Source: an uncultured Verrucomicrobiae bacterium
GTDB taxonomy: Bacteria; Verrucomicrobiota; Verrucomicrobiia; Opitutales; JABDGR01
Direction of reading: 5' to 3'
Length of the DNA: 64,000 nucleotides
Assembly (NCBI GenBank): GCA_963765205.1
Contig: CAVXVB010000005.1
Coordinates: forward strand, 64,001 to 128,000
Made by a program: the position numbers and the translations under genes. This document shows, in pieces, positions 6,825-28,935 of this stretch (position 1 is its first letter; each line of letters opens with the position of its first letter). Below the pieces are notes generated by a model. The model was not told the origin of the DNA, made no database searches, and saw only the letters and a list, made by a program, of their open reading frames with translations.

Positions 6825-7603
6825 AAACTTACCTCTTACTTCTTTTTCTCGTGCCGGTAACGGCTTTCGGTCAATACCCGGTTTTCGACGGTGCCAATCT
6901 GGCTAACAATCAGTCGGCGCACGCCGAGGATATTGCCAAGTGGGTGCAAAGCATCGCGCAGTTGAAAACGCAAATAGACCAGTTGAACCAGCAAATCAGC
7001 ATCCAAAGCGATATTCGCCAGTGGCAGGGCGATCCGGTGGAAGCGGGCGCAAAGGTGGTGCTGGTGGGCCTCGGGCAGCAGGATTTGGCCCAGCAATACG
7101 GCCAGATAAAGACGGTTCTACTTAGTCTCGTAAACAGCGTGGCGTCGTTGACGAACACCGGCCAGGGCACTTACCGGCCAATCAACGATGTCGATTTAAG
7201 CGGCAACGCGTTCCAGCCGGACCCGTTGACGCATCGCCGCTATTCGGTATTGGACGCCGCGCAAGCGAACTCTGACCAAGTTACGGATGAAACGAAGGCT
7301 CGGGAAGATATTTTACAGGCCGATATTGCCGCCACACTCGCCCAATTGGCGACGGCCTCGACGGATGCCGAGGCGCAAAAACTGACCGCAAAGCTGATTG
7401 TGTTGAATGGGCAGCTTGCCCAGGTGGAGGCAACGCAAAAGCGGGAAGCGGATGCCGTCACATTGCAAAAGGTCGCGAACGATTCGCGCAAGGATGAGGA
7501 AATTCAGGCGGCGGCAGAACTTGAGATGCAGGACGATTATTTAGCGAACCAACGGGTCACGGCCTACATGCACACTATCAAACTGAGGACAACCACGCCA
7601 TGA
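6821..7603 (+). CDS. VirB5/TrbJ-like protein
   Basis: Signal peptide then YPVFD..N, Gln-rich coiled coil, located before the VirB6-like gene. Confidence 0.65.
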   Translation: MKTYLLLLFLVPVTAFGQYPVFDGANLANNQSAHAEDIAKWVQSIAQLKTQIDQLNQQISIQSDIRQWQGDPVEAGAKVVLVGLGQQDLAQQYGQIKTVLLSLVNSVASLTNTGQGTYRPINDVDLSGNAFQPDPLTHRRYSVLDAAQANSDQVTDETKAREDILQADIAATLAQLATASTDAEAQKLTAKLIVLNGQLAQVEATQKREADAVTLQKVANDSRKDEEIQAAAELEMQDDYLANQRVTAYMHTIKLRTTTP

Positions 7604-7860
7604 ACATAAAACGTCATATCACCGTTGTACTGCTGCTCGCCTTTGTGCTCGGCGGTGCCGCCTGCTCGAAAAAAGACGATACGAACGAGAAGCAGCGCCT
7701 TGCACAGGAACAGCAAGATGAGCGGGACGCTGCGATAGCGAACAAGGCGATTTCGGACAACAATAGGAACGCCCTTGGGCGCAAGCCGCCAAATTTTGAT
7801 TTGGGCTTACCGCCCGTGATGGACAACGGGACGGCGCAAACTCAAACGCAACAACCTTAA
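7600..7860 (+). CDS. Small lipoprotein, candidate entry-exclusion (TrbK/Eex-like)
   Basis: Lipobox GAAC, 86 aa. Sits between VirB5-like and VirB6-like genes, as trbK does. Confidence 0.5.
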   Translation: MNIKRHITVVLLLAFVLGGAACSKKDDTNEKQRLAQEQQDERDAAIANKAISDNNRNALGRKPPNFDLGLPPVMDNGTAQTQTQQP

Positions 7861-7866
7861 ATTATC

Positions 7867-8817
7867 ATGGAAATCTTTCTTCCAACGCTGGAAAGCAAAA
7901 TGACGGCCATCGTGGTCGCCTTTCGTTTTGTCGTTTTTGCGATAATGGTGGCGGGATTGATTGGGTATGCCTCCACTGGTCGTGCGCAAGGGGCCGGACT
8001 ATTCGGGCCATTGTTCCGCGCCCTCATAATCGTTACGGCCATCGCATTTCAGGATACATGGTTTCCGCAAGTGGAAAATACCTTCCTCTCGGTCTCCGAG
8101 TATATTGACCCCGGCTATAACGCCAATCCAACTTCCTCGGCGGATGCCATACGCGAATCCACCACGACGAATCCGCAAGGCCAGTCGTGGTCATGGCGGC
8201 GGCTCAACCAATCCATCTACCAGGCGGTCACAAACGCGCTCGCGAATGTTTTCATTTACATCGGCACGCTGATTACGGTCCCGATGCTGATTCTCCAATA
8301 CGTCCTGCGTTGGCTGCTGTATATGCTGACGCCGTTTGCGTTGGCTATGTTTATGGTGCCGGGGTTTAGCGGGATAGCCATACGGTTCTTTCAACAATTA
8401 TTGGCGATTTTAGCGTGGCCGGTCGGATTCGCCATAACGAACCTCGTTGCTCTGGCCGTTTGGCAAGATTTTCGCAACGCGGTGGGAGCCAATCCACAAA
8501 CCGTCAGTGATGCCCTCTATTCGCCTCTTTTGACCTTCATGGGGGGAATCCTGGCTACGATTATGATTATCGTGGGGATGGTCTCGACGCCCATTGTCAT
8601 GCAGATGCTCTTTGCGCAAGGCCATGCCTTTACCGGGTCGTCGGGCAATCCCATTTCCATTATCCGCGGCAGTGCCAGTGTCCTTTACGGCGTCGGCGAC
8701 CGCCTGGTAGGTCGTCGCGGTCGTGGCGCCCTCCTCGCGCCGCAGCAGGGGGCTGCGCAACCGTCAACCCCGCCTAACCCGCCGCCGATGGGGGCTGATC
8801 CCCGGCCCGGAATATGA
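7867..8817 (+). CDS. VirB6/TrbL-like polytopic membrane protein
   Basis: Multiple TM helices, a low-complexity Gly/Pro C-tail, and synteny. Confidence 0.7.
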   Translation: MEIFLPTLESKMTAIVVAFRFVVFAIMVAGLIGYASTGRAQGAGLFGPLFRALIIVTAIAFQDTWFPQVENTFLSVSEYIDPGYNANPTSSADAIRESTTTNPQGQSWSWRRLNQSIYQAVTNALANVFIYIGTLITVPMLILQYVLRWLLYMLTPFALAMFMVPGFSGIAIRFFQQLLAILAWPVGFAITNLVALAVWQDFRNAVGANPQTVSDALYSPLLTFMGGILATIMIIVGMVSTPIVMQMLFAQGHAFTGSSGNPISIIRGSASVLYGVGDRLVGRRGRGALLAPQQGAAQPSTPPNPPPMGADPRPGI

Positions 8818-8830
8818 AGAAAGCTTTGCC

Positions 8831-9505
8831 ATGGATGCTGAAACCACCGCAACCGGCCTGCACGAAAGCCCCGTGGATCAAACCCGCCAGCTTCCGGCGG
8901 CCAAGCGTGCGCGTTTTTCGCCAGTGCGTCTCTTTGCGGACAATGCGTTTGCGGCACGCCTGTGGTTTCTTGTGGCCTGCGGCGCATTGGCGTTCTGTGT
9001 AATCCAACCCTACCTTATTATCTCGGCCTATCGGACAAGGGAGCGGGTCGTCGTGTTGGACGGCGCGGGAACCTTTTCAGTTTCGCCGTTGCTGGGCTTT
9101 GAGGAGGCCAAGGATTTGCATGAGGCCATCGCCCTGTGGGCCACGCTGGCGCTTTTTGAGCGCAATCCCAAAGACTTTGATTACCCGGAAATGCTGCAAC
9201 GCCTGTATCTCGCGGATGCCTTTCAAAAGGCGGAGGCTGACCGTGACAAGTCGCGGGACGAATTTGCCGTAAAGTCCATTCACCAAAAGCCGGAAGTCTT
9301 CAAGATAGACATTCTGCAAACCCGCGACAACCAGGTGCTCGTCAAGGTGGAAGGCCAATTGATTCGCACAGGCATTTTTGAAGGCCAGTCATTCGCGGAA
9401 TCTCCAAAATTTACGCTCACCCTTACTCTGGTGCGAAACCCGGACATGTTCGCCAATAAACGCTATCCCCTCGGTGTATGGAAATTCGACTACACTTTAA
9501 ATTAG
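8831..9505 (+). CDS. VirB8/TrbF-like protein
   Basis: Single N-terminal TM then VVVLDGAG. Ends VRNP...YPLGVWKF, resembling the VirB8 NPLG motif. Confidence 0.65.
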   Translation: MDAETTATGLHESPVDQTRQLPAAKRARFSPVRLFADNAFAARLWFLVACGALAFCVIQPYLIISAYRTRERVVVLDGAGTFSVSPLLGFEEAKDLHEAIALWATLALFERNPKDFDYPEMLQRLYLADAFQKAEADRDKSRDEFAVKSIHQKPEVFKIDILQTRDNQVLVKVEGQLIRTGIFEGQSFAESPKFTLTLTLVRNPDMFANKRYPLGVWKFDYTLN

Positions 9506-10353
9506 CGGCGCTGCTAATCCCGCTGCTTGCAACCGTTGCGCTGGCCGATCCGCCCGCGCCGCATCCAAGCGTCGTCAAGCAGTTCCCCTTGGATGAGCGC
9601 ACGGTTTACGAAATTCCCATCGGGCGTGACGTGCCTACCACGCTCATGTTCCCTTCGGCGATTTCCGCCATTGATAGCGCAAACGTGTCGGGCAATCCTG
9701 ATACCCCTGCGCCTGTGATGCTGGCCTATACGCCGGGACAGTATTTTTTCAGCGTGCGGGCAATGACGCCGGGGGCCAAGGGCGCGGTGAACGTGGTGTG
9801 GCACAATCGCACGTTTGTCATTCGGTTCGCGGAAGGCGCGGAGCCGTATGGCTCGGTGACGTTCTACGACGATGATTTCGCGGGCCGTGACCATGCGGTG
9901 CAAAAACGGGTCACGCCGGAAACCCTGTTGGGCCTGCTCGACCGCGCCAAGAGTTACCAATTGATCGAAATGCAATATCCCGAGGCTGTGCAGCAAATTG
10001 AGCACGCGGAGCCGGGCAGCATCAGTTATTACAAGGATTTTCAAGTGACGGTGGAAGAGGTCTTTCGCTTCGACCCCGAGGATACGCTGGTTTTCAAACT
10101 GAAATTGGAAAACATGGGCGATGTGGAAATCCATTACCAGCCGCAACGGCTGGCCGTCCGGGTTGGGCAAAACGTCTATTATGCCTCCATCGTGGATGCC
10201 TCCGGCATCATTCCGCCCAAAGCAGTAACGACAGCCTACTTTGCGGTTACCGGCAGCCCCACCGGGGGGCGAGCCAACCTGAGCATTAAGAATACTTTCA
10301 ACATCATCGTCACGCGCATTGAGCGTGACGTGAAACTTATCGTTCCCCAATAG
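9478..10353 (+). CDS. VirB9/TraK-like outer-membrane core protein
   Basis: Signal peptide, beta-rich, PTTLMFPSAI motif, located between VirB8-like and VirB10-like genes. Confidence 0.6.
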   Translation: MEIRLHFKLAALLIPLLATVALADPPAPHPSVVKQFPLDERTVYEIPIGRDVPTTLMFPSAISAIDSANVSGNPDTPAPVMLAYTPGQYFFSVRAMTPGAKGAVNVVWHNRTFVIRFAEGAEPYGSVTFYDDDFAGRDHAVQKRVTPETLLGLLDRAKSYQLIEMQYPEAVQQIEHAEPGSISYYKDFQVTVEEVFRFDPEDTLVFKLKLENMGDVEIHYQPQRLAVRVGQNVYYASIVDASGIIPPKAVTTAYFAVTGSPTGGRANLSIKNTFNIIVTRIERDVKLIVPQ

Positions 10354-10355
10354 CC

Positions 10356-11369
10356 ATGCGCGTCATCGCTTTTTTGAAGTCTCCAATGGGCAACCTGGCC
10401 CTCTTCTTCGGTTTCATCGCCGCGGGTGGTTTGTTGCTTTATCAAAGCAACGCGCGGGCGCGGGCACAATCGGCTCAAATGACGAAAATCGAGGGGGCTG
10501 GCCCTGCGATGTCGGCGGCGTCAATTTTCCGCACTTCAGTGCCGTTCAAGCCACCCGCAGCGGCGGCTGATGGCGACGCGGAGCCAGCCTCGGCAGCGGT
10601 GAAAGCAAAGGCCCCAAGTGGGCCAAAGCCGCTGCCCATTTCCCTTTTCATCGCGGGCAAAACGGCGCAAGACGCCCAGGAATTGTCGAAAAACTACGCG
10701 CCTTTTGGTCGCCTGATTCCCTGTGAGACAGTTATCACTTTGGAGTCTTCTAAACTTGATACGCCGGTTATCGGCCTCGTTACTGAAGATGTCTGGAACA
10801 ATGGACGGCTTATCATCCCGGCGGGTGCCGAGGTGCATGGTCGTGCGTCGCTAGACCACTCGCGCGATAGGATAGCGGCTTCCGGGAAGTGGGTCATTGT
10901 CTGGCGGGACGCCAGCAATTTGAACGGCACGGAATTGGTAGTCTCTGGCATCGCGCTCGACCGCGAAAAAGATGACACCACCGGCCAATTCGGCTTGCTG
11001 GATGGTTCGGCGGGCCTCACCGGGGCCATTATCAAGACCGACGATATGGAGGAAATAAAACTTTTCGCCGCGACATTTTTAGCCGGAATGGCGAGCGGGT
11101 TTCAACAACTGCAAACGCAAGTCACGCCGCTGGGCATCGCGCAGATTTCCACCGGCTCGGCCCGTAACGCGGCCCTGCAAGGAACTGCCAGCGTGCTTAA
11201 CCTGTATGCGCAACAAATCCAGGCGGCGATTGAGCAAGACGGGGTCTATGTGCGGGTGCCGACTGGCAAACAGTTTTATCTCTACGTCACCCAAACCGTA
11301 GATCAGGCGCAAGGGACGCGAGACAATCTGAGCAACCAAGAACTCTGGAGGAAAGACAATGCAAAATAG
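10356..11369 (+). CDS. VirB10/TrbI-like protein
   Basis: N-terminal TM, Pro/Ala linker, PVIGLVTEDV..G..IIPAGAEVHG, DGSAGLTG, C-terminal VPTGKQFYLYV. Confidence 0.8.
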   Translation: MRVIAFLKSPMGNLALFFGFIAAGGLLLYQSNARARAQSAQMTKIEGAGPAMSAASIFRTSVPFKPPAAAADGDAEPASAAVKAKAPSGPKPLPISLFIAGKTAQDAQELSKNYAPFGRLIPCETVITLESSKLDTPVIGLVTEDVWNNGRLIIPAGAEVHGRASLDHSRDRIAASGKWVIVWRDASNLNGTELVVSGIALDREKDDTTGQFGLLDGSAGLTGAIIKTDDMEEIKLFAATFLAGMASGFQQLQTQVTPLGIAQISTGSARNAALQGTASVLNLYAQQIQAAIEQDGVYVRVPTGKQFYLYVTQTVDQAQGTRDNLSNQELWRKDNAK

Positions 11370-11859
11370 AATCATCATCTTGCTTTCGATTTTCATTTTG
11401 GCGGGTTGCCAGACAGTGAAAAAGGCTCCCGCGCCGCCTCCGCTGGAGGTGCCACCGCCTGTTGCGGGCACGGAATTAGACCAAAACAACATGGAAAATG
11501 TACGGGTCAGTGAATCACTCAAAGCCTACCCGGTGGGGCGCTTTGTTGACCCCAATAATCCGAATGTCATGGACGAGGCGCATACGGTTTATCGCCGCGA
11601 AGCCGGGGCGGAGTGGAATTTGAATCCCAATGCTCCTACGGTGGTGCCGCTTGGCCCGGTGCTTGCGGTAGCGGACCCGGCCAAGGTGCCTAACCCGCTG
11701 CCGGCGGAATTGGAGCAGAAAATTGCGGAGCAGAATCAACTCATGGCTTCGCTGATTGAGCAAAATGAGGCTCTGGCAGCTCAACTGGCAAAACTAAACA
11801 AAGACATCGCAGACATGCGCGCGAGGCAATCCGTGCCGGGCGGGGAAGGCGGCAAATGA
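11359..11859 (+). CDS. Lipoprotein (T4SS accessory, TraV-like position)
   Basis: Lipobox LAGC, YPVGRFVDP motif, C-terminal coiled coil. Overlaps the VirB10-like stop. Confidence 0.55.
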   Translation: MQNRIIILLSIFILAGCQTVKKAPAPPPLEVPPPVAGTELDQNNMENVRVSESLKAYPVGRFVDPNNPNVMDEAHTVYRREAGAEWNLNPNAPTVVPLGPVLAVADPAKVPNPLPAELEQKIAEQNQLMASLIEQNEALAAQLAKLNKDIADMRARQSVPGGEGGK

Positions 11860-12122
11860 ATCTGGAACTAAAATCACCCCCTGAAGTGGAGGGTTTGACC
11901 GTGATCTTGCCTCCGCATTTGGCGGAAAAATTTGAACGGGCAGACCGCGAGTTGCGTGAGATATACGGCCAGAGTCCGGGTGCTGCGGTTTTGTTGCGGA
12001 TGTGGCTCGGGTATAGTTCAACCACACGTATTCGCCGTGAATTCGAGCACGCCGTTTTGGAAATAGAAAGTCGCAATCCCACCCCTAACGAGGAAGGGGA
12101 TTACGATGAAGACTGCCTATAA
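11856..12122 (+). CDS. Hypothetical protein
   Basis: ATGA-coupled to the preceding gene, 88 aa. Confidence 0.55.
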   Translation: MNLELKSPPEVEGLTVILPPHLAEKFERADRELREIYGQSPGAAVLLRMWLGYSSTTRIRREFEHAVLEIESRNPTPNEEGDYDEDCL

Positions 12123-12212
12123 CTTTGGGCGATATTCGCCCAAACAAGGTCAAGTGCCAATGGCGACCAGCCGCCTTGGTTAAATAATGGCTGGGGAAAA
12201 ACAGGAGGCATT

Positions 12213-12587
12213 ATGCCAACACTAAAACAGTCAATCGCCGAGAAAAAGGCGCAGGAACCGGGGCTTCGCAGGAATCCTGAAATTGATGCCAAGCTGGATC
12301 AATTCATTCAGGAAAACTCGAAACTCCGCGAGTTCTACCAGGGCCTGAGCAAGGAGGATCTGATCCGCAAGCTCATGCTCGCGAAAATGCAACGCAGCGA
12401 ATACACCAACGGCCGCAATCAGGAGATTCGGGCGTGGGTGGAAGAGCACCCCGAGATCAAGGCAAAGATCGAGGAGCGCATCCGCAACGTCCCGGAGGCG
12501 AAACGTGAACGCGCGTTCTTGAACGCCGCGAAAACGGAAGCCATGAACCAGACGGTGCGCGCCAACGGCAACGGCGTCCGCCCGTAG
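12213..12587 (+). CDS. Hypothetical helical protein
   Basis: Good AGGAGG RBS and followed by a terminator. Internal repeat NPEIDAKL / HPEIKAKI. Confidence 0.7.
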   Translation: MPTLKQSIAEKKAQEPGLRRNPEIDAKLDQFIQENSKLREFYQGLSKEDLIRKLMLAKMQRSEYTNGRNQEIRAWVEEHPEIKAKIEERIRNVPEAKRERAFLNAAKTEAMNQTVRANGNGVRP

Positions 12588-12832: not shown

Positions 12833-13264
12833 ATGAGCTTTCCTTCAATCAAAGAAAAGTTAACCACCTTCGCGGCTGGGCTCGGTACCGACCAGCAGAA
12901 CCAGCTTCAACGTATTTTAGAAGCCGCTGAGGCAAGTATAAAAAATCCGGCGTTAAAATCCGGGATGGCTCCAAAGAATCCCAAAATTCGCGAAGAAAAG
13001 TCGAATTCGGATCCTTACGCAGAAGCTGGCTTATATGTAAAGCCCATGTCGGCACACGAAGTTGTCGGTCGCGAGCACAAGCCAAATCCAGACCCCTATG
13101 AGCAAGGTGGTCTTTATACGAAGCCGATGTCAGCTCACGAACTTGTAGGCCACGAAAGCAAAACGAATGCTGACCCTTATGAGCAAGGTGGCCTTTATGT
13201 AAAGCCGATGTCGGCTCATGAACTCGTTGGACGCGATGACAAAACGGGTTCGGCTCAAGAATAA
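12833..13264 (+). CDS. Putative multi-core RiPP precursor peptide
   Basis: 143 aa: a helical N-terminal leader-like segment plus three tandem 27-aa repeats containing DPYxxxGLYxKPMSAHExVG. Directly upstream of modification enzymes. Confidence 0.75.
   Translation: MSFPSIKEKLTTFAAGLGTDQQNQLQRILEAAEASIKNPALKSGMAPKNPKIREEKSNSDPYAEAGLYVKPMSAHEVVGREHKPNPDPYEQGGLYTKPMSAHELVGHESKTNADPYEQGGLYVKPMSAHELVGRDDKTGSAQE
12989..13231 (+). repeat. 3 x 81-nt in-frame tandem repeat
   Basis: REEKSNSDPYAEAGLYVKPMSAHEVVG / REHKPNPDPYEQGGLYTKPMSAHELVG / HESKTNADPYEQGGLYVKPMSAHELVG. Many differences in the conserved motif are synonymous. Confidence 0.95.
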
Positions 13265-13463
13265 ACATTTAACAATCTGAGAACGACATGGTTAGTTGAA
13301 GCGCAGTTAATTACTCGCTGACCAGAAACAGGCCATCAAAACTAGAGATTATATGTGCTTTGCAGCACAAAATCGACCGTGCTGCAATACATTGAAGTAG
13401 TATTCTATTGGCTCGACCTAACCACTGGTCCAACGGGTAGACCAGATTGTTTGGATACCATCT

Positions 13464-14207
13464 ATGACTACGCCGATGTCAACAGATTTGAGCCGAGAAT
13501 TGAGTTTCTTCGCTAACACCTCACTCGAACCGGAGGAAAGAGAAACGGTTCGCTTGTGTCTTGGAACTGCTGTTGGTGAGTTTATCGACAAGAAAACATT
13601 AGAGCCGTTGCCCGACCGGCAAAATGCTGTGCGCGATATAAGCGGAACTCTTAATTTAATGAACCCGCTCGGGAATGTTATCCCACAGAGTGGCATATTA
13701 TTCACTGGTCGCCCAACTTTCATAACTGACGAACTTCTGCATTCACTAAAGGAAGAAGCCCGATTACAATATCGTAAGGCAATATTCAATTATTAACAGT
13801 ATTTGGGCGATGGCGGCCCAATAGCGATTAGCTTAAGTCGGTCCGCACGATTGCTCGGAATAATCTCAACGATTTCGCACTGCTCATTTATGCCAAATTC
13901 GGCGAGTTTTCTTTACTACAATTATCCTGGCTCTCGTGTTTTGCCCCATGTAGACAATAGGAGATTTTTTATCAATGTTCTTCTGATGATAGAGCATAAT
14001 GGGGTGCATGAATTAAGGCCTTCTTGCACGGTCGTTTACCCGCCGAACGGACCGCCACAATATTTCGACCTACAACCTGGAGAAATGTTAATATTTTGTG
14101 CCGCATACGTGCCCCATGCACGTAGTCCAGTAGCGGGCGACGAAACTGTCACGGTTTTGTCTCTCGGATATGAGTTGCAAACCGTTAACTTACAACCCGC
14201 AATTTAA
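13464..14207 (+). pseudogene. Fe(II)/2-oxoglutarate oxygenase interrupted by one in-frame TAA (13794-13796)
   Basis: ORFs 13464-13796 and 13803-14207 share a frame and together align end-to-end with the paralog at 16769-17512. PHVD (HxD) and distal PHAR motifs are intact. Confidence 0.75.
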
Positions 14208-14209
14208 CT

Positions 14210-16219
14210 GTGGTGTCGCGATCAGGTAACTATGTTCTTGGAATTCATTTAGGCCACGATGCGTCATGCGCAGTGGTGCGCGACGGTGTATTACTAGCCG
14301 CGGTTCAAGCAGAACGAATTACAAGAAAAAAGCATCAAATTCAGCACACCCTTTCGGACGCTCTTCCAATTAAAGCGGTCTTACGAGCTGCGGCTATTGA
14401 GTTGGCCGATGTTCGACTAATAGTTTCAAGTTTCCAAGGAATGGCTCCTGGCGGGTTTGGGTTACACACACCTCTTATAGACCCAGGTTTCAATTCTTTC
14501 GACCCTTTTGATGAAAGACATTTCTGTATTTCACATCATTTAGCTCATGCGTATTACGGGTTTGGAAGTTCGGGATTCTCAGATGCTGCGGTCCTTGTAT
14601 GTGACATGGCAGGGTCGTCGACGCACGATGGGAACGACTATTGCTTGCCTTTCCGACGCTGGCACGATGGGCTTACAAGCTTTGAAAAGGTGCCTGCCAC
14701 AAAAACAGAAACTCTCTCAATATACCATGCGACAATGAGCGGGATTGAGTTAAAGGAGCGACAGTTTTGGATAAGCCATGTTCAACCTCATTCTTATATC
14801 CAGAGCGCTACAACGTTATACGAGAATGTTTCATTTGCGGTGTTTCGTAGGCACAATTGCCATGGGCAGCTAATGGCGTTAGCCGCCTTTTCGGATGAGA
14901 AAAACGGTCTCGTCACTTGGGAATCAATTATAGACACGGATAGTGCTTGCGCCATACAATTCAAAAACAATTGGCAACATCGAATTCCGACTGAAATGAC
15001 CTTTAGCGCCTCCGCATCTTTAGCACATGCTTGCCAAATAGCATTTGAATATTGCATTTTAGCTCACGTTAGGAACGCTAAACGGTTGGTGTTGTCTGAT
15101 AATCTAGTAGGATCAGGAGGTGCGTTTTTAAATATTCCTGCGAACACAAAAGTTTACGACAGTCATGTTTTCAATCGTTACTTTGTTCCCAGCGCGCCTC
15201 ATGACGCTGGAATATCTGCGGGTTGCGCGTTCTGGGGAGACCGTTTTCTTCGACGTGAGCAATACTTTTTTGCAAATACGCCAGCGCCATGCAGAGCGAA
15301 TGATCGGCTTGGTGTTCAATATTCAAGAGTGGAGATATTAGATGCTTTACGGCGATTTGATTACTTTGTTGAATTTGAAGCCGCGTCCCCGACGGTAGTA
15401 GCTGAAAAACTCTTTGCTGGGCGTATTCTAGCCCGTTATTCAGGAAGAGCCGAATTTGGCCCAAGGGCACTTGGCGGTCGAAGTTTATTAGCATCGCCCT
15501 TGTTGGAAGCAACAAAAGTGCGAATGAATCACATAAAGGGGCGCCAACCTTGGAGGCCAGTGGCACCGGTAATACTGGAAAACCATGTCCACGAGTTCTT
15601 TGTTGGTCCAGCAAGTAGTCCCTACATGTTATTTTCATATCGGGTTAGACCCGAGGTTGTCGATCAATTACCCGCGCTGCATCACCCTGACAATTCAACG
15701 CGCCCGCAGACATTACAACGAGCAGATGATGAGGATTTGTACGACCTGATCTCTGCATTTTCCAAGCTAAGCGGCGTTCCCATTCTTGTAAATACCTCGC
15801 TCAATGGCGCTGGTGAAGCAATGATAGAAACGCCAAATGAAGCTGTGCAGTTCTTTCTCGACCATGAGGACGTAGATGATTTACTCATCGACGGCTGGAT
15901 GGTTTCGCGGCGGGGAACTTGGGACGATGAGCGCCTGAAGAATCTACGCTTGAGACTACCTAGCCATACGCGAATAGAGTTAGTTCTTGATGAAGCTGAG
16001 TGGACTGCATTCGTACATAACGGGCGTGTTTCCCAAAAGATGAGTTTGAAGCTTGCGGGTGTACTTGTGACATGCACTGGTAACGAAACAGCGGGAAGAA
16101 TTTTGCAGAAACTTGACGATGAAGCGACCCGGAATTTCTTATACAAGCTTCTCGCAATTGGTCTTGTCGAGGTGGATGGCGACCCGATGCCTATCGAAGA
16201 TAACGGAGGGACATTCTAA
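14210..16219 (+). CDS. NodU/CmcH/TobZ-family carbamoyltransferase with C-terminal RRE/winged-helix-like extension
   Basis: GHDASCAV, ERITRKKH, HHLAHA, EFGPRALGGRS, KGRQPWRPVAP, NTSLN. About 90 extra C-terminal residues. Confidence 0.9.
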   Translation: MVSRSGNYVLGIHLGHDASCAVVRDGVLLAAVQAERITRKKHQIQHTLSDALPIKAVLRAAAIELADVRLIVSSFQGMAPGGFGLHTPLIDPGFNSFDPFDERHFCISHHLAHAYYGFGSSGFSDAAVLVCDMAGSSTHDGNDYCLPFRRWHDGLTSFEKVPATKTETLSIYHATMSGIELKERQFWISHVQPHSYIQSATTLYENVSFAVFRRHNCHGQLMALAAFSDEKNGLVTWESIIDTDSACAIQFKNNWQHRIPTEMTFSASASLAHACQIAFEYCILAHVRNAKRLVLSDNLVGSGGAFLNIPANTKVYDSHVFNRYFVPSAPHDAGISAGCAFWGDRFLRREQYFFANTPAPCRANDRLGVQYSRVEILDALRRFDYFVEFEAASPTVVAEKLFAGRILARYSGRAEFGPRALGGRSLLASPLLEATKVRMNHIKGRQPWRPVAPVILENHVHEFFVGPASSPYMLFSYRVRPEVVDQLPALHHPDNSTRPQTLQRADDEDLYDLISAFSKLSGVPILVNTSLNGAGEAMIETPNEAVQFFLDHEDVDDLLIDGWMVSRRGTWDDERLKNLRLRLPSHTRIELVLDEAEWTAFVHNGRVSQKMSLKLAGVLVTCTGNETAGRILQKLDDEATRNFLYKLLAIGLVEVDGDPMPIEDNGGTF

Positions 16220-16767
16220 TGATACACCGTACCCCAATTACTTCAGAAACTCTAGTTACGCGCCGGTTACACCTGGAGTTTTTTAAGAAAGATCATGCCA
16301 TGTGTTTATTCAAGGGGTTACAGGACCCTCGAATTTATCTATTTATTCCTGATGATCCTCCGGCTGATTTAAGCGTGCTTCAAAAGAGGTATGAAATATT
16401 AGAAAAGGGGGTATCGCCTAACGGAGAGGAATTATGGCTTAATTGGGCAATCCAGTTGCAAAATGGAACTTATATCGGTTACGTTCAAGCGACTGTGTTT
16501 CAAGACGACACCGCATCGTTAGCCTATGTAGTCTTTCCTCAATTTTGGCGTAAAGGTTATGCGAAAGAAGCATGTCAACGAGTAGTAAACTTTCTATTCG
16601 AAGGCAAGCATGCCGCATTGATTACTGCGAACACGAATACGAAAAACGAAGCATCTATAGCGCTTCTGCATTCGCTTGGCTTTTATCATGTGCGGTCAAT
16701 ATCCAATGCTGAAACAATAAGGGGGGTTCCAAGCGATGAACATGTATTCCATCTCTCGAAAAGCTGA
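16219..16767 (+). CDS. GNAT acetyltransferase (RimJ/RimL-like)
   Basis: TRRLHL, FWRKGYAKEA (acetyl-CoA binding), NEASIALLHSLGF. TAATG-coupled to the carbamoyltransferase. Confidence 0.85.
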   Translation: MIHRTPITSETLVTRRLHLEFFKKDHAMCLFKGLQDPRIYLFIPDDPPADLSVLQKRYEILEKGVSPNGEELWLNWAIQLQNGTYIGYVQATVFQDDTASLAYVVFPQFWRKGYAKEACQRVVNFLFEGKHAALITANTNTKNEASIALLHSLGFYHVRSISNAETIRGVPSDEHVFHLSKS

Positions 16768-16768
16768 T

Positions 16769-17512
16769 ATGCAAGGCAAAGATGCCATGGAAGAGAAACA
16801 AGCCGGATCGACAACGCTTGCCGAGTCGCTATCGTCATTCGGCAATACACTAAACCCGGAAGAACAAAGCGCACTGCGGAAAGTTTTGGCGGTTGCTATT
16901 CCAGAGCTTATTCCAAACAATGGTTCACTTCCGTCTGAGCTAGATGCTGCTGTTAAATTTGCAACTGTTTGTGAATGTCTGAGGTCTCTTCAGCCATTCT
17001 CTCGTCGGATTCCTGAAAATGGAATTGTCTTTCACGGTCGCCCGTCATGGCTTACTGATACATTGCTGAGTAAATTACAGATTGAAGCTGAGGAAACTCG
17101 GCCTTCCGCTATTGTACAACACGGCCATTTTCTAGGAAAAGGTGGTTTGCTAGCAGACCAACTTGCTTTTGATGAAGGGGTGCTCCAATGGGTAATCAGG
17201 TATGCCGGAACCTCAAAACCGACTGGCATTGCCAGCTACATTCATTATGAGCAGGAAGGAGATGGGCTATATCCCCATGTTGATACAGATATTTTCGCCA
17301 TTAACGTATTAGTGATGTTGAAACACGTATACCCATCTCATGGTCCAGTGTCTGAAACGTGCGTTTATCCAAATGGGAATCGGGTTGAGAAATACGATCT
17401 AAAACCAGGTGAGACGATCATGATGTTTGGCGGCAGCGTCGTCCATGCGCGCCTTCCGCTTCAAAAGGGCGAAATGGTTCGTATCGTAACATTTGGCTTT
17501 CAGCCGATGTGA
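16769..17512 (+). CDS. Fe(II)/2-oxoglutarate oxygenase (intact paralog)
   Basis: YIHY..G..LYPHVD (HxD), VVHAR (distal His). Paralogous to 13464-14207. Start is 16769 or 16787. Confidence 0.75.
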   Translation: MQGKDAMEEKQAGSTTLAESLSSFGNTLNPEEQSALRKVLAVAIPELIPNNGSLPSELDAAVKFATVCECLRSLQPFSRRIPENGIVFHGRPSWLTDTLLSKLQIEAEETRPSAIVQHGHFLGKGGLLADQLAFDEGVLQWVIRYAGTSKPTGIASYIHYEQEGDGLYPHVDTDIFAINVLVMLKHVYPSHGPVSETCVYPNGNRVEKYDLKPGETIMMFGGSVVHARLPLQKGEMVRIVTFGFQPM

Positions 17513-17667
17513 AATATTATTTTGCTTGTGTGATGCAAAATGTTGCTGGTTCGCCTGAGAAGTCTTTCGACAATATAAACATTATGATCAATGCAGGGAA
17601 TCGCAACCGTTATGGCTGAGAATTCCCTTTGACTGGAAAATGCCCTTTCGATTACCTACGAATCACT

Positions 17668-17850
17668 ATGACAAAAAAATCCAGAAAACCACCTCAATCA
17701 GCGCGTGCCAAGGGCATGACGCAAATTTCCATTAGTCTTCCCGAGGGGCTTGTCGGGAAGATTGATGCGATGGCTGGCGCTGAAAATCGCAATCGCTCTA
17801 ATTTTATCGCCAATACGCTTCAAGCCTTGGCGACAAAATCGGGTGTGTAA
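17668..17850 (+). CDS. Ribbon-helix-helix (CopG/MetJ-like) DNA-binding protein
   Basis: TQISISLPEGLVGKIDAMAGAENRNRSNFI fits the RHH pattern. Confidence 0.75.
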   Translation: MTKKSRKPPQSARAKGMTQISISLPEGLVGKIDAMAGAENRNRSNFIANTLQALATKSGV

Positions 17851-17871: not shown

Positions 17872-20800
17872 TTAGTGGTAGTTGTGCGATGCCTGTTCTG
17901 GCATTCCGTCGCTGGGCATCGCTGCGATTTTTTCGGCCATGACGTGAATTACTCCTTGCTCGTTTTGCAGTCGTCCGCTGATGATGAGTGCGGGCACTAG
18001 GTTGATAATCAAGCGGGCTTGTTCAAAAAGGGTTGGCCGCACGATGGCGTTGGCGTGCCCGGTTTCATCTTCTACAGTAATGAAGCAGAAGCCTTTCGCG
18101 GTGCCCGGCCTTTGCCGGGTGATAACTGCGCCCCCGATCTTTACCCGGCTTCCGGGGGGCAAGTTTTTCAAATCGGCGGCGGGGCATAGTCCATCCAGGC
18201 GGGAGCGAAGCAATTTCATCGGATGCGCTCCGGTGGTGAGTTCGGTGGTCGCGTAGTCCGCTTGCAATCGCTCTAAAAGGGACATGCGCTCAAGCGGAGA
18301 GAGTTCTTGCTCCTCGCCGGTCGCCGCTTGTTGGAAAAGCTCGTCCTCGGGGTGCATGGACTCGACATGCCAAAGCGCGGCTCGGCGATGTCCGGTCAAC
18401 GCATTAAGGGCGCCTGATGCTGCGAGCACCCGGCGCTCGTTGGGGTTAAAGGTCGTGCGCTGCAAAAAATCGGTGAGAGAAAGAAAAGGCCGGTCGCTGC
18501 GAGCGGCCAGTAATTTTTGCCGGGACCCGGCCTTCACTCCTTTCAATGAAATCAATCCGAGCCGGATAGTGTCGTCGCTTTCGACCTGGCATTTTTCGGC
18601 GGAAAGCTGGACGCAAACCGGCAAGGTGCGGATGCCGTGTCGTCGGGCGTCCTGCACTAAAGACGCGGGCGAGTAAAACCCCATCGGCTGATTATTGAGC
18701 AACGCGGCATAGAAGGCCGTTGGCCGATGCACCTTTAGCCAAGCCAAGGCGTAGGCGATTAGCGCAAACGAAATGGCATGGCTTTCGGGAAAGCCGTAGA
18801 GCGCGAATGACGCAAGCGATTTTAGAATGTATTCCACGGCTGGGTCGTTCACGTTGTTCTTCCTCAAAGCGTCGCCTAGCTTTGCCTTCACCCGGTCAAG
18901 GCGCTCCTGCGAGCGGGTAAAACCGATGGCACGCCGCAATTCGTCGGCCTCGGCTGCGCTAAAGCCGCCAAGCTCCATCGCCAGCCGCAAGATTTGCTCC
19001 TGAAATAAAACCACCCCGAGTGTGCGCTCAAGAATGGGCTTGGCGCGTTCGTCAGGATAGGTGACAGGTTCCTCGCCGGAACGCCGCCGCAAGTAGGGAT
19101 TCACGGCGTCGCCCTGGATTGGGCCGGGCCGGATGATTGCCACTTCAATCGCAAGGTCATAGAAGTTTTGCGGTTTCATGCGCGGCAGCGTGGACATCTG
19201 AGCGCGGCTTTCAATTTGGAACAGCCCGATGGTGTCGGCCTCCTGAATCAATTTGAACGTGGCCGGGTCGTCTTTGGGCAGCGCCGCCAAGTCCACCGGC
19301 TGGCCCCGCTGGGCACAGATTTCCAAGGAGTCCTGCAATGCGGCCATCATACCCAGCCCGAGCAAGTCCACTTTGATGATGCCCATATCCTCGCAATCGT
19401 TTTTATCCCATTGCAAAACGGAACGGCCCGGCATCCTCGCGTTTTCCAAAGGGACAAATTGGTCGAGGTTGCCCGCGCTCAAAACCATCCCTCCCGAGTG
19501 TTGACCCAGGTGGCGCGGAAGTTTATAAACTTGTCGGCACGTATCGAGCAATGGCACAAGTTGCGGATAGTCCCGCGTGACTCCCGCCGCCCGCAACTGC
19601 TCCTTTAATTTCATTGTGTGGGGATAGTCGCCGCCATGAAAAAGGCTGGAAAAACGGTCAAGCACGTCGTCGGGCAAGTTGAACACCTTGCCCACTTCCC
19701 GCATGGTGCTGCGGCCCTGAAAGGTGATTACGTTGGCGGTCATGGCCGCGCCGCGCCGGCCATAACGCCGATAGACTTCCTGAATCACGGCCTCGCGTGG
19801 ATCGCCGCTGGGCAAATCGAGGTCAATGTCGGGCCAGTCCGTCCGGCCTTCCGAAAGAAACCGCTCAAAGAGCAACTTGCTGCCGATGGGGTCAACGGCG
19901 GTGATTCCAAGCGCATAGCAGACGGCGGAATTCGCGGCACTGCCCCGGCCCTGCACAAGGTAGCCGCGCTCACGGGCAAAGGCGCAAATGTCCCACACAA
20001 TGAGAAAATAGCCCGAAAACCCCAACTTGGTAATGAGGTTTAATTCGCGTTCTAGCTGCTTCCGCACGTCGCCTCCAACGCTGCCATAACGCTGTTGCGC
20101 TCCGAAATAGGTCATCTTGCGAAGAAAAGTATCCTGCGATTCCCCGGCTGGCGCGGCGAAGTCAGGAAACCGATAGCCCAAATTGGTGAGCGTGAATTGA
20201 ATCCGCTCCGCGAGTCTTTCCGTGTTGGTAATCGCCTCCGGCAAATCAGCAAACAAAGCCGCCATCGCTTGCGGGCTTTTAAGATGTCGCTCGCTGTTTT
20301 GTGCCAGTCGTCGTCCGGCTTCGGTGAGGGTGGTATGTTCCCGCAAACAGGTGAGAACGTCGGCAACATGGCGAGCCTGTGGCGTGGCATGGAGCACGCC
20401 GTTGGTCGCGAGCAACGGCACGCCTGACGCCTGCGCCCAATCAATCAGGAATTCATTCTCGGCTTCCTCCTCGGGAATCAAGTGACGTTGGATTTCAGCA
20501 TAGAGCCGATTGAATCCGAAAACTTTCAAAAGCTTTGCTCCTTCCACCGCTGCGGCCTCGGTTCCTTGTTCACGCCAAGCTCGCCGGACCGGGCCGTATT
20601 CATCGCCCGTCAGGGCGATCAATCCATCATGGTCTTCGGCCAATTCCTGCCAGGCAACGCGGCCTTCACCTTTGGGTGCTCGCAAATGCGCGGTCGTCAA
20701 TAGGTGGCACAATCGCCGATACCCGGTCTGAGTTTCCACCAATACGGGGATAACGCTTTCGTCCTCCATCGTGAGTTCGCAGCCGACAAGGGCGCGAACG

Positions 20801-20973
20801 CCCGCTTCTTTTCCTGCCATGTGTGCTCGCACGATGCCATAAACTCCGTCGCGGTCGCAAAGCGCAACGGCGGGCAATTCCTGGCGGGCAGCCTCAACCA
20901 TAAGCGATTCGGGAAGCGAGCCGCCGCGTAAGAAAGAGAACGCGCTTCGCGCATGGAGTTCCGCGTAGGCCAT
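17872..20973 (-). CDS. dnaE2: Error-prone DNA polymerase III alpha (DnaE2/ImuC)
   Basis: YAELHARSAFSFLRG PHP domain, GRGSAANS, PDIDLD, YGFPESHA, C-terminal SHNYH (variant of the SRDFH motif). TAATG-coupled to imuB. Confidence 0.95.
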   Translation of the reverse strand: MAYAELHARSAFSFLRGGSLPESLMVEAARQELPAVALCDRDGVYGIVRAHMAGKEAGVRALVGCELTMEDESVIPVLVETQTGYRRLCHLLTTAHLRAPKGEGRVAWQELAEDHDGLIALTGDEYGPVRRAWREQGTEAAAVEGAKLLKVFGFNRLYAEIQRHLIPEEEAENEFLIDWAQASGVPLLATNGVLHATPQARHVADVLTCLREHTTLTEAGRRLAQNSERHLKSPQAMAALFADLPEAITNTERLAERIQFTLTNLGYRFPDFAAPAGESQDTFLRKMTYFGAQQRYGSVGGDVRKQLERELNLITKLGFSGYFLIVWDICAFARERGYLVQGRGSAANSAVCYALGITAVDPIGSKLLFERFLSEGRTDWPDIDLDLPSGDPREAVIQEVYRRYGRRGAAMTANVITFQGRSTMREVGKVFNLPDDVLDRFSSLFHGGDYPHTMKLKEQLRAAGVTRDYPQLVPLLDTCRQVYKLPRHLGQHSGGMVLSAGNLDQFVPLENARMPGRSVLQWDKNDCEDMGIIKVDLLGLGMMAALQDSLEICAQRGQPVDLAALPKDDPATFKLIQEADTIGLFQIESRAQMSTLPRMKPQNFYDLAIEVAIIRPGPIQGDAVNPYLRRRSGEEPVTYPDERAKPILERTLGVVLFQEQILRLAMELGGFSAAEADELRRAIGFTRSQERLDRVKAKLGDALRKNNVNDPAVEYILKSLASFALYGFPESHAISFALIAYALAWLKVHRPTAFYAALLNNQPMGFYSPASLVQDARRHGIRTLPVCVQLSAEKCQVESDDTIRLGLISLKGVKAGSRQKLLAARSDRPFLSLTDFLQRTTFNPNERRVLAASGALNALTGHRRAALWHVESMHPEDELFQQAATGEEQELSPLERMSLLERLQADYATTELTTGAHPMKLLRSRLDGLCPAADLKNLPPGSRVKIGGAVITRQRPGTAKGFCFITVEDETGHANAIVRPTLFEQARLIINLVPALIISGRLQNEQGVIHVMAEKIAAMPSDGMPEQASHNYH

Positions 20974-22424
20974 TAGTCCAAGACTCCCTCCACGCGCCAG
21001 CCGTCGTCGGAGTGCGTGAGTTGATATACGCCGCCTTCGCTGAGTTCGACGTGCCAGGTTTCGACTGCCCAGGCTTTGGGCCTCCACCATTCGCCCGATA
21101 CACGCCATGGCCCCGCCACGGCGCAAATCGCGCCGCGAATTTGTGTGCTGTCAATCGTCGCGGGGCGCTCTCCGGCCAATTCTACATGAATGGGCCAAGG
21201 TGGGCGAAAGCGGCGCAACCGCAAACCGCGCGGCGGATGTATCGGCGGCTCGGCGGGTGCGGGCACAAGCTCGGTCGGTTTGACCAAAATAAAGGCATCG
21301 GGTTTGTGTGTGTCGGCGATAACCGGGGTGCCGACACGTCCTTCTCCAACAATCGCACTGACTCGCGCAAGATTTTCCCAAAAAGCGGCGGGGTCGCGCA
21401 AACCGGTGTCGAATAGACCGCCTTGTTTCTCCGGTGCGCGGATGGGCTTTGCAACCAAGCGCACTCGGGCAACTCGCGCAGCCGTCCGCACAGTTTCCAA
21501 GTGCGAATTCAAGACTCGCAACCACGAATCCAAATCCGTGTTTGCTTCCGGCAATCGAAAATTCCGGCGATAGTCGGTCTCGTCCTCAAGAAACAAAGTC
21601 ATGGTGAGTTCTTCGGCGACAAGCTGCGCGGCCCGCAACTCCAGGGTGATGCGTTCGGCAAAAGCCCGCAATCGAAAGAAAAGCGGCTCAATGGATTCGA
21701 CGGGTGGTTCGTATTCCCATTCGGCTTCAAACGTCTGTGACGGTTCAACGAGCCGGAGCACGCTTGTTGTTTCACCTGCGGCGCGTTCCCAAAGCGTCAC
21801 GCCTTCGGTGCCAAGTCGCTGTGCGATGTCCGCCTTGGATAACGCGGTCAGGTCGCCAAGCGTTCGGATACCCCAGCCGGAAAGAATTTCGGCTTGGGTT
21901 GGTGTCGGGGCGGCGAAAGTCAACGGCAACGGGGCGAGAAAATTTCTGGTGTCGGTGACGATCAACAATGGCTCGGCGCAATGGGCGGCAATGTTGGCGA
22001 GCAAAGGCGTCGCGGCTGCGCCGATGCGAGCGGGAAGACCCACCTTGGTGAGTTCCCGGATGCAAAGCCGCATTTGAGTTTCCGTTTTCACGGCGTCTGC
22101 ACCCTGCAAATCCACTGTGCAACACCCTCCGGCAGTAGTCTCGACGCGCGGCGAAAGGCTAAAGGAGGTGGCAATCAAGATGCGTTGTGCCTCGACTTCG
22201 GCGGTGGGGTCGCGCGGACGCAACACGATGCCTGGGCATTGCGCCATTGCCAAGGTGACTGCGAGGCCGGGCGTCACGCCTTTGGCTTCGGGTGATGTCT
22301 CGGCAATGGTCGCCTTACGGCCCTCGCCAGAGATCAACGCGGTGGCACGGCCTGCCAGCGTTGCGTCGTTCCGGCGCAAGGCGTGTAACCGGAAATCGGG
22401 AACCCAAAGAACGCAGAATTTCAT
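20973..22424 (-). CDS. imuB: Y-family polymerase-like ImuB
   Basis: GVTPGL.V..A.A.CP, clamp motif QGGLFD, RLRRF, GPWRVSGEWW. Located between imuA and dnaE2. Confidence 0.9.
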   Translation of the reverse strand: MKFCVLWVPDFRLHALRRNDATLAGRATALISGEGRKATIAETSPEAKGVTPGLAVTLAMAQCPGIVLRPRDPTAEVEAQRILIATSFSLSPRVETTAGGCCTVDLQGADAVKTETQMRLCIRELTKVGLPARIGAAATPLLANIAAHCAEPLLIVTDTRNFLAPLPLTFAAPTPTQAEILSGWGIRTLGDLTALSKADIAQRLGTEGVTLWERAAGETTSVLRLVEPSQTFEAEWEYEPPVESIEPLFFRLRAFAERITLELRAAQLVAEELTMTLFLEDETDYRRNFRLPEANTDLDSWLRVLNSHLETVRTAARVARVRLVAKPIRAPEKQGGLFDTGLRDPAAFWENLARVSAIVGEGRVGTPVIADTHKPDAFILVKPTELVPAPAEPPIHPPRGLRLRRFRPPWPIHVELAGERPATIDSTQIRGAICAVAGPWRVSGEWWRPKAWAVETWHVELSEGGVYQLTHSDDGWRVEGVLD

Positions 22425-23074
22425 ACGGCCCTTTCCATCGCTTCGCTGACATGGCCGCGCGCGATTTCAACGGTAAGGTTGGCAGCAAGCTGCTCTTGGG
22501 ACATGCGCTTCGTCGCAAGTCCGTGTGAAGTGGACAAAACCAGCCGCCAAGATACGGCGGGCACAAGGGGGCATGGGCTTAGCACGAGCACTGCCGGGGC
22601 CGCGTGTTCAATCACGCGATGCAAACGATGCCAGGTGGTGCCGGGCTGATTCCTGAGCACCTTCTCGGCAACCCCGCGCAAATCAATCACGACGGCGGCA
22701 TAGTTGCCGTCGCGCACTAGCACGTCACCTGATGCAAGTGCATCCGCGAAGGCACGGCAACGCACCCAAACAAGGTGCCGCAAGGCGTCGGGGGAAATCG
22801 CGTGGGGCGCGAAGCCGTCTGCTGCATCTATCAAGGCAATCCTTTGCCGGGCCGTGCGTGTGGTCTCAAGGAATCGGGCTAGGACAAGCTGCCCGCCGCT
22901 GCTTGGGGCCGTTGAAACCAACTCTGTGAGTTGGCTGGCGGGGAGGCCGTCGCCTAGCGCCTCGTCAATGGCCGGCACTCCGGTTGGCACGCCGACGCCC
23001 TGCCGCCGCGCTTTTTGGGGAAACCGGGCGGCCACAAGCGACCGCAACGCGGCCATGGTGGCGGGTGGTGACAT
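22421..23074 (-). CDS. imuA: RecA-like ImuA
   Basis: PTGVPAIDEALGDGLP..LTE, degenerate Walker A, ALIDAADGFAP. Upstream of imuB. Confidence 0.85.
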   Translation of the reverse strand: MSPPATMAALRSLVAARFPQKARRQGVGVPTGVPAIDEALGDGLPASQLTELVSTAPSSGGQLVLARFLETTRTARQRIALIDAADGFAPHAISPDALRHLVWVRCRAFADALASGDVLVRDGNYAAVVIDLRGVAEKVLRNQPGTTWHRLHRVIEHAAPAVLVLSPCPLVPAVSWRLVLSTSHGLATKRMSQEQLAANLTVEIARGHVSEAMERAV

Positions 23075-23131
23075 GGCTGCTGGCGTCTTGCATCGGTTTG
23101 AATGCGGGCGGACTGGCCCCATTCCGTCAAT

Positions 23132-28090: not shown

Positions 28091-28142
28091 ATTTACAAGT
28101 GAATTGATTGGGATCACCGCGTGAGTCTAGCCATCCAGTAAA

Positions 28143-28847: not shown

Positions 28848-28935
28848 GCTATGAGTTCAACCGATTTTTGATCGCGCCGCAAGTCGGACATACCAGTGAA
28901 TCCGTAGTCAAAGAACCTCGTCGAGTGTTTCCGCC

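Follow-up and report, generated by a model that had tools for sequence, protein, structure and literature searches.

Known enzymes of pathways for peptides made on the ribosome and modified after translation (RiPPs) read the leaders of their precursors through RiPP recognition elements (RREs), clefts adjacent to the active site, or separate partner proteins. In the crocagin cluster (CgnA, the iron- and 2-oxoglutarate-dependent (Fe/2OG) dioxygenase CgnC, and CgnI) the core is hydroxylated by the Fe/2OG enzyme and the product carbamoylated; the passages of PMC10070186 on this pathway describe a short cationic leader, an Ile-Tyr-Trp core, delivery by the separate proteins CgnB/CgnE, and a protease, CgnD. 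Those of PMC8784127 on the selidamides describe hydroxylation of an Orn/Lys side chain by PhaI followed by acylation by the GNAT PhaN. The nearest precedents for recognition, as presented in the relevant parts of the sources, are the split borosins, which include multi-core precursors and whose helical docking domain belongs to the precursor in type IV and to the enzyme in type V (RceM) (10.1101/2021.12.24.474128), and the NHLP and Nif11 leaders, which are folded, protein-like, and derived from part of another protein (PMC2887384; PMC12537861). Here we describe a five-gene cluster found in a 64,000-nucleotide stretch of an uncultured Verrucomicrobiae bacterium (contig CAVXVB010000005.1, positions 64,001 to 128,000; the window), which encodes a putative peptide precursor, two Fe/2OG oxygenases (1 and 2), a carbamoyltransferase, and a GNAT acyltransferase (Table 1).

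The precursor leader and the N-termini of both oxygenases carry a common 28-residue helix-hairpin, hereafter the module. The explanation that we favor, and consider probable, is that the cluster belongs to an apparently undescribed and widespread RiPP-type family in which the leader docks with each oxygenase through a pairing of like with like, both the binding and the chemistry being predicted. A cluster of this family would have a precursor with one or several Lys-centered cores, a GNAT and, in the usual case, two distinct Fe/2OG oxygenases; a carbamoyltransferase would often be present as well, as would an MFS exporter.

The shared hairpin and its distribution

The three segments exist as described in the initial annotation. 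Oxygenases 1 and 2 are paralogues over their entire length (local alignment score 309 against a shuffle mean of 31; 34% identity), so the match between their modules is not independent. Whole-protein local alignment of the precursor with oxygenase 2 gives a score of 44, reached by 25 of 1000 shuffles (p = 0.025); the likeness between the precursor and oxygenase 1 is not found by this means (p = 0.96). Taken alone, the window sequences make a weak case for resemblance: the three-way pattern that had been proposed does not follow from this trio, in which the precursor aligns with oxygenase 2 only, but the likeness itself is real and is confirmed by tests across the family.

The tests drew on an oxygenase search with 327 representatives at E ≤ 0.001, from which we took the best 150 for examination and removed two repeat-protein false matches. 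The collection holds 59 loci, being the window and 58 others from four named genomes (Kosakonia, Paraherbaspirillum, Niabella, and a Kofleriaceae metagenome-assembled genome), one Metabacillus plasmid, and 53 metagenome contigs, and it covers at least four named phyla. A small upstream open reading frame (ORF) with a Lys-centered core, mostly [FY]xKP, is present in 46 of the 59, window included. The first oxygenase frame of 11 of the remaining 13 lies no more than 30 nucleotides from the contig end; one other has 215 nucleotides upstream and one is fragmented. Precursors were defined independently of the module, as same-strand ORFs with [FY]xKP just upstream of an oxygenase, a rule that yielded 39 of the 59 loci and, after removal of 3 truncated leaders and 11 redundant entries, 25 non-redundant precursors. 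Module profiles recovered precursors in seven loci missed by this core-motif rule.

A position-specific scoring matrix (PSSM) built only from enzymes (81 oxygenase N-termini, window proteins excluded) matches the leaders of 24 of the 25 precursors when 20,331 genome chunks serve as the null (p ≤ 0.01) and misses only that of L038; 23 of the 25 pass against full shuffles. The window precursor scores 17.7 bits, a value reached by 0.03% of the genome chunks and by none of 1000 shuffles that keep the hydrophobic/polar pattern; the module of oxygenase 1, with a one-residue insertion allowed, scores 20.8 bits against a maximum of 14.4 among 1500 null chunks. Shuffled amphipathic helices had been suggested at the outset as the proper comparison, and the precursor leaders beat pattern-keeping shuffles in 22 of 25 cases (p ≤ 0.01). 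Against a precursor median of 21.1, the 168 chunks of a carbamoyltransferase control reach at most 5.4. The top score of a GNAT control (18.5) is the L032 precursor, which shares one stop-to-stop frame with a GNAT, and the next is 11.2. This frame (L032, 7-1008), with the GNAT upstream, may be a fusion or merely a shared frame.

Profile comparisons in both directions gave the same picture. Compared using hhalign, separate MAFFT alignments of the 25 precursors and 73 oxygenases matched nowhere but in the module (E = 8.7e-6, probability 83%). A PSSM made with 23 precursors taken from other organisms placed the window precursor first (26.0) and oxygenase 2 second (24.1) among 71,202 six-frame ORFs. 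A precursor-only hidden Markov model (HMM) run over the whole window genome returned, at E ≤ 1, just the precursor and oxygenase 2 (E = 0.0165 for the latter); in four other genomes it found the oxygenase N-terminus in one. The shared columns are L1, K4, L5, L/F8, L12, E16, R17, L20, I/L23, L24, and A27, and in most single-core precursors the match ends 15-18 residues ahead of the core. Precursor and enzyme types can be told apart (22/24 versus 1/55), K at column 4 being found in 96% of precursors versus 30% of enzymes. Mean identity over the 28 positions is 7.3 between precursors and enzymes, and 9.6 and 8.8 within the classes. Precursors are slightly closer to the enzymes of their own locus than to those of others (27.3 versus 22.8, permutation p = 0.0017).

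Judged from sequence, the module is homologous across the family and has diverged into a precursor type and an enzyme type, such that the leader and the oxygenase N-terminus share, by old homology, an anciently duplicated helix-loop-helix. The initial annotation spoke of a leader "copied" onto the enzymes; taken literally this is rejected, the precursor and oxygenase 2 modules being identical at only 35 of 84 nucleotides. That figure rules out recent literal copying and, with the separability of the two types, points to an old duplication. The companion claim, that the module independently ties the peptide to the enzymes, holds, the shared hairpin being real and family-wide.

Convergence would account for the resemblance differently, both proteins simply having, at their start, a generic amphipathic helix and then an L-[ST]-x-x-E cap ahead of another helix. 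Unrelated proteins of the window genome do reach similar scores (up to 22.8), precursor-enzyme identity averages just 7.3 of 28, and designed coiled coils are the top, non-significant, Protein Data Bank (PDB) matches of the precursor profile. Yet the pattern-preserving shuffles fail in 22 of 25 cases, register and loop length are equal, the polar K4, E16, and R17 are conserved in both classes, and within-class identities barely exceed that between classes. Convergence also leaves unexplained the co-occurrence in neighboring genes at 24 of 25 loci, and we judge it highly unlikely. No PDB sequence fell below E = 0.05 for either the precursor or the enzyme profile. A PDB match to TvaLP (8jsu, E = 0.89) is at chance level, and a literature search on it gave nothing relevant.

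Some members depart from the common arrangement. A divergently transcribed and more distantly related 2OG oxygenase beside the L053 cluster (556-1419, minus strand) bears an enzyme-type module (28 bits) at its C-terminus, and from this placement the module may be a movable tag. The multi-core precursors of L004, L009, L018, L025, L027, and L055 possess an extra conserved helix (KTIEELK-like) before the module; the window precursor has none and starts five residues ahead of the module.

Modeled docking of leader and enzyme

The AlphaFold2 model of oxygenase 2 (predicted local distance difference test (pLDDT) 92.6) has N-terminal helices at residues 28-36, 41-58, and 69-84, the first two of which are the module. 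Complex prediction of oxygenase 2 (residues 20-258) with the precursor (1-85) gave a score of 0.83, whereas the best of three controls reached 0.43; runs agreed in at least 43% of contacts, with a partner pLDDT of at least 52. Among solved complexes 116 of 157 attain this mark, as do 2 of 215 mismatched pairs; these counts are only rough where our own alignments are used. The confident contacts lie between module and module, plus the third helix of the enzyme, in a pseudo-two-fold arrangement. Both chains contribute the identical 12 module columns to the interface. Of 17 listed contacts between modules, 12 are either on-axis or mirrored, and on the axis equivalent residues come together (F35-F13, A54-A32). 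Conservation is highest in these columns, with a top-residue frequency of 0.54 and 0.72 against 0.30 elsewhere.

Two modules are present in 8 of the best 150 oxygenase-search matches, five of them with a spacing of 38 residues, and the first (extra) copy is precursor-like in 5 of these 8 versus 1 of 55 single-module enzymes. P0119 is a single chain that runs from an AMP-binding enzyme at its N-terminus through two modules, with an FLRPS motif between them, to an oxygenase, and that contains an embedded precursor-like segment. From their sequences, we read the double-hairpin oxygenases as natural leader-enzyme fusions.

On this model the hairpins of precursor and enzyme would pack together about a pseudo-two-fold axis, with the third helix of the enzyme as a cap, and docking would tether the flexible core or cores close to the catalytic domain. 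We surmise that the hairpin fold began as a dimerization element of the enzyme itself, and that the substrate, in docking, imitates a subunit of the enzyme, so that each oxygenase could be loaded via one handle. Homotypic pairing of enzyme and precursor, one of three roles suggested initially, is thus supported as far as the controlled prediction and the eight double-hairpin enzymes reach. A bolder extension, which we offer as possible though somewhat doubtful, is that the leader is a paralogue of the dimerization domain of the enzyme and that the substrate is recruited posing as a subunit. Subunit exchange, from enzyme-enzyme to enzyme-substrate pairs, could then switch on and order both oxygenases, the double-hairpin oxygenases would be single-chain leader-enzyme fusions, and the hairpin would be a docking tag, portable and symmetric, that follows one pairing code throughout the family.

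The same interface invites another explanation, namely that the module dimerizes within each class only (oxygenase 1 with 2, or homodimers; precursors among themselves, for stability or storage). The leader would then descend from the enzyme N-terminus without docking on it. The modeled interface is symmetric and homo-pairs are geometrically possible, most loci encode two oxygenases of differing HxD subtype, as would suit a heterodimer, and the two module types are cleanly separable. Against this, the heteropair passed its controls, the double-module enzymes join a precursor-type copy to an enzyme-type copy, and a single oxygenase is seen in the available DNA of L006, L007, and L014. Within-class dimerization alone is consequently, in our estimation, unlikely.

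Another suggested role was that of a fused activating leader: the enzyme copy would occupy the leader site of its own enzyme and keep it active, the substrate leader being optional or competing. The module does pack with the third helix of the oxygenase N-terminal domain, and leader activation in trans is known in RiPPs from the pertinent passages of PMC10070186. In the model, however, the ordinary enzyme copy is the receptor surface and not the ligand, and precursors keep their copy more strictly than enzymes (K at column 4), unlike an optional leader. As a general account this is very improbable, although the idea may apply to the double-hairpin enzymes.

The remaining role made the module a tag read by a C-terminal RRE of the carbamoyltransferase, which would gather the precursor and both oxygenases. 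Sequence searches did not identify this tail and fold comparison alone did: it has the three-strand, three-helix winged-helix topology of PqqD-like RREs (PqqD, Z 7.7, root-mean-square deviation (rmsd) 2.7, 80 aligned; PbtF, Z 7.7, rmsd 2.9, 78 aligned), and fusions of RREs to carbamoyltransferases (PF02543) are noted in the portion of PMC12710340 concerned with them. Its best matches, however, are the tails of NovN (Z 10.1, rmsd 2.6 over 85 residues) and GdmN (TM-score 0.76), which show that the fold also occurs outside RiPP pathways; from the entry titles, the substrates of these enzymes are non-peptide. Moreover, RREs bind leaders as an added β-strand, not as a helix pair. The multi-core loci L004, L005, L009, and L018 keep the module with no carbamoyltransferase in locus DNA extending more than 5 kb downstream, the whole genomes being unsearched for one. 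Because the tail is closest to NovN and GdmN and the enzyme is absent from four module-keeping loci, such a hub is disfavored and, to our mind, scarcely credible.

Several points weigh against docking by like-with-like pairing, or against the family-wide homology on which it is built. The precursor HMM reached an oxygenase N-terminus in two of five whole genomes and made one unrelated match (E = 0.43); five unrelated genome ORFs score 17.7 or more on the enzyme PSSM, the motif including a common helix-capping pattern; and a short enzyme-module HMM (hmmsearch) ranked its own precursor only 7th of 71,202 (E = 10), too weak a result to stand alone. Precursor L038 is without the module, 65 of the best 150 oxygenase-search matches have no module peak (many are fragments or divergent), and the cognate-pair signal is confounded by kinship. 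Binding is supported by a single predicted complex in which the core is placed without confidence; the interface columns would be conserved as the hairpin's own core too; and the hairpin appears sticky, since the control pairing the precursor with an unrelated protein still scored 0.43. The symmetric interface could, in such a model, stem from a homodimer signal in either alignment and not from heteropairing. Finally, no recurrent protease was found among the locus neighbors.

Cores, oxygenases, and predicted chemistry

The gene product upstream of oxygenase 1 is a small protein with a conserved leader and separate cores encoded beside modifying enzymes, as in a RiPP pathway. Lys70, Lys97, and Lys124 are the likely modified residues of what we take to be a modified peptide. 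K70 and P71 are invariant in the alignment of 25 precursors, and across precursors Lys is invariant and Pro nearly so; the two-core variant LLKTQS (KTQS) of L052-L054 keeps Lys without Pro, leaving Lys as the only invariant core residue. By motif count, multi-core members hold 2-7 repeats of a short motif, set apart by acidic or Gly-rich spacers. Where a single-core precursor has a conserved tail, a carbamoyltransferase usually accompanies it, and multi-core FLKP(M/Q)Q types with long flanks are accompanied by two oxygenases and a GNAT alone; the window combines a multi-core precursor with a carbamoyltransferase.

The small protein might instead be no cleaved precursor but a scaffold or carrier that is used repeatedly, or a regulatory subunit; its Lys would be modified or loaded, and the hairpin would make it a subunit of an oxygenase complex. 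Single-core members look like small folded proteins with a conserved helix-like tail after the KP site, P0119 unites the parts in one chain, and all-vs-all clustering of locus neighbors revealed no recurrent protease, nor is there one in the window island. The repeats and spacers of the multi-core members, however, are the usual layout of multi-core precursors, that is, a repeated short motif with spacers as in RceA, and we find the scaffold or carrier explanation distinctly unlikely. An MFS-like transporter is among the neighbors of approximately 10 loci (the L003 member being judged MFS from its sequence); none is present in the window island.

No Pfam or NCBIfam family scored above cut-off for the precursor or the oxygenases, a single-sequence precursor search found only itself among 42 candidates, PADLOC gave nothing for P0001-P0003, and the ESM Atlas gave only matches under 0.9 for a single-core precursor. 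The precursor of L030 (4722-5891) shares a frame with an upstream Thr/Gly-rich region of ~300 residues, either as a fusion or merely as a shared frame, and that of P0162 has a signal-peptide-like start.

Oxygenase 2 has the double-stranded β-helix and HxD...H triad (His181, Asp183, His237) that characterize the Fe/2OG superfamily. Its closest solved folds are HalB (Z 17.7, rmsd 2.4, 163 aligned), the HalD/BesD homologues, and prolyl hydroxylases (Z 15-16); these matches cover residues ~88-258 only and leave the N-terminal helical domain unaligned. In the ESM Atlas it falls with unnamed clusters only, the nearest named being 2OG-FeII_Oxy_3 (25%) and HalD, and the window oxygenases are in no strongly supported clade of an oxygenase tree built in quick mode. 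H181 and D183 are invariant in 73 of 73 aligned oxygenases. Radical halogenases such as BesD and HalB have an HxG/A iron motif with an open chloride site, a motif absent here; because HxD...H is essentially invariant, hydroxylase-type rather than halogenase-type chemistry is expected. Loci with two oxygenases typically encode one HxDT enzyme and one of another subtype (HxDN, HxDK, or others), though the search patterns inflate the HxDT share. The window encodes one oxygenase of either kind.

Residues 237-249 of oxygenase 2 contain no conserved Arg/Lys at the last-strand site, which we take to be the usual position of the 2-oxoglutarate-binding base, and R239 and E246 are 99% conserved; a different co-substrate anchor is suggested. 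In P0025 the oxygenase is fused to a C-terminal S-adenosylmethionine-dependent methyltransferase (Pfam), and P0154 appears similar by eye.

The oxygenases are a candidate family of peptide Lys/Pro hydroxylases, of HxD type and HalB/prolyl 4-hydroxylase (P4H) fold, with predicted chemistry. In the scheme that we propose they would hydroxylate the invariant Lys and/or the neighboring Pro, the carbamoyltransferase would O-carbamoylate the new hydroxyl, the GNAT would acylate the Lys amine, and host proteases would free a small product. That all of these steps occur as set out is a tentative proposition, to which we give somewhat less than even weight.

The locus and its relation to described systems

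Table 1. Features of the cluster, with positions counted from the first letter of the window
Feature	Position	Strand	Remarks
Putative precursor, 143 aa	12833..13264	+	Helical leader, linker, three near-identical 20-aa repeats, YxKPMSAH core
Precursor copy of 28-aa helix-hairpin module	12848..12931	+	aa 6-33; interface in complex model
Three core repeats	13010..13231	+	aa 60-79, 87-106, 114-133; period 27 aa
Fe/2OG oxygenase 1, HVDN type	13464..14207	+	In-frame TAA 13794-13796
Oxygenase 1 module copy	13488..13571	+	aa 9-36; one-residue insertion in loop
CmcH/NodU/NovN-type carbamoyltransferase, 669 aa	14210..16219	+	Pfam PF02543, PF16861 above cut-off
Carbamoyltransferase C-terminal winged-helix domain, RRE-like fold	15926..16195	+	AlphaFold2 pLDDT 88.5
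GNAT acyltransferase (Acetyltransf_3), 182 aa	16219..16767	+	PF13302 E=4.7e-20; recurs across related loci
Fe/2OG oxygenase 2, HVDT type	16736..17512	+	N-terminal helical domain, then double-stranded beta-helix
Oxygenase 2 module copy	16817..16900	+	aa 28-55; interface in complex model

The frame of oxygenase 1 is interrupted in this assembly by the in-frame TAA, which the initial annotation does not mention. Position 13794 is G (codon GAA) in the contigs of both of two sequencing runs (two samples of one study; depth 3.4 and 2.8). As both runs read GAA, the population probably has an intact gene, the TAA being an assembly error or a minor allele. The C-terminal half of the truncated oxygenase 1 is present in the protein collection as a separate protein, P0138.

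The five same-strand genes occupy a lower-GC island at ~12.7-17.6 kb (43-49% GC versus 53-64% in most flanking windows). The island is flanked on one side by conjugation genes (TrbI, TraG_N-like) and on the other by an error-prone polymerase cassette, beyond which lie QatABCD and restriction genes; this placement suggests that the cluster is cargo of an integrative element. The run at 3662-12587 is conjugative and type IV secretion-like, and includes TrbI, a TraG_N-like gene, and a 917-residue ATPase-like ORF without a Pfam match. A small ribbon-helix-helix gene (17629-17850) adjoins the ImuA/ImuB/DnaE2-like cassette (17872-23122, minus strand; IMS and Pol III alpha domains), in which one protein without a Pfam match is presumably ImuA. 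The defense island at 23369-40489 holds a complete QatABCD, a PLD-SNF2 helicase, a type IIG restriction-methyltransferase, an AAA ATPase, and a GmrSD-like gene (PADLOC, Pfam). Promoter and terminator scans of the window were at or below shuffle expectation. Searches for the window oxygenase among 40 relatives of this genome, for the oxygenase in 350 further genomes of the phylum of G044, and for the Kosakonia locus in E. coli genomes found none of them.

A full-text literature search of main texts, mostly from outside subscription journals, found among titles and abstract starts no description of the family or mechanism; the word "carbamoyl" is absent from the main text of PMC7470986, and the RRE-carbamoyltransferase tables of PMC12710340 could include family members. 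The hairpin is a real feature of the family, which is an apparently undescribed RiPP variant with a plausibly new recognition mode. If this is true, a leader homologous to the N-terminal domain of its enzyme and pairing with it symmetrically would be a further, and unusual, mode of substrate recognition, and duplication of the start of an enzyme gene would be a concrete answer to where a leader comes from. The 28-residue module serves as a marker by which precursors are found directly, and for the hydroxylase candidates it would be a docking tag that is small and could be transplanted. Because some named carriers are in culture (Kosakonia oryzendophytica, Paraherbaspirillum soli, Niabella hibiscisoli, and Metabacillus sp.), product and mechanism are open to testing.

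By enzyme class the cluster resembles that of crocagin, as outlined in the passages of PMC10070186, in having an Fe/2OG oxygenase and a carbamoyltransferase; it differs in its Lys-Pro cores, its GNAT, a leader homologous to the oxygenase, and the lack of any recurrent partner or protease. The cores are internal [FY]xKP motifs and not the C-terminal x-Tyr-Trp of crocagin, and all-vs-all clustering gave no recurrent CgnB/CgnE- or CgnD-like neighbor, no search with Cgn sequences having been made. For the Lys hydroxylation and GNAT acylation proposed here the selidamides are the best precedent, though the passages of PMC8784127 describing them feature NHLP or Nif11 leaders, LanM, and arginase, none of which is seen here, and no carbamoyltransferase, which the window cluster has. 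None of the 25 precursors matches an NHLP/Nif11-type leader family at E ≤ 0.1 (Pfam, NCBIfam).

The five-helix BBD of the borosins, in the part of 10.1101/2021.12.24.474128 that treats it, resides on one partner or the other and binds the methyltransferase; here both partners bear the module and are predicted to pair through it, and the island encodes two oxygenases, a carbamoyltransferase, and a GNAT and no backbone N-methyltransferase. NHLP and Nif11 leaders come, in the sections cited above, from nitrile hydratase or Nif11, whereas this leader is related to the pathway's own modifying enzyme. HalB, HalD, BesD, and the prolyl 4-hydroxylases are the nearest catalytic folds at 11-17% identity, and their Lys/Orn or Pro substrates match the KP core, but the window oxygenase adds an N-terminal three-helix domain and has a putative peptide substrate. 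By analogy, the cluster would work like a RiPP pathway with crocagin-like enzymes and selidamide-like chemistry, yet it fails the defining features of each.

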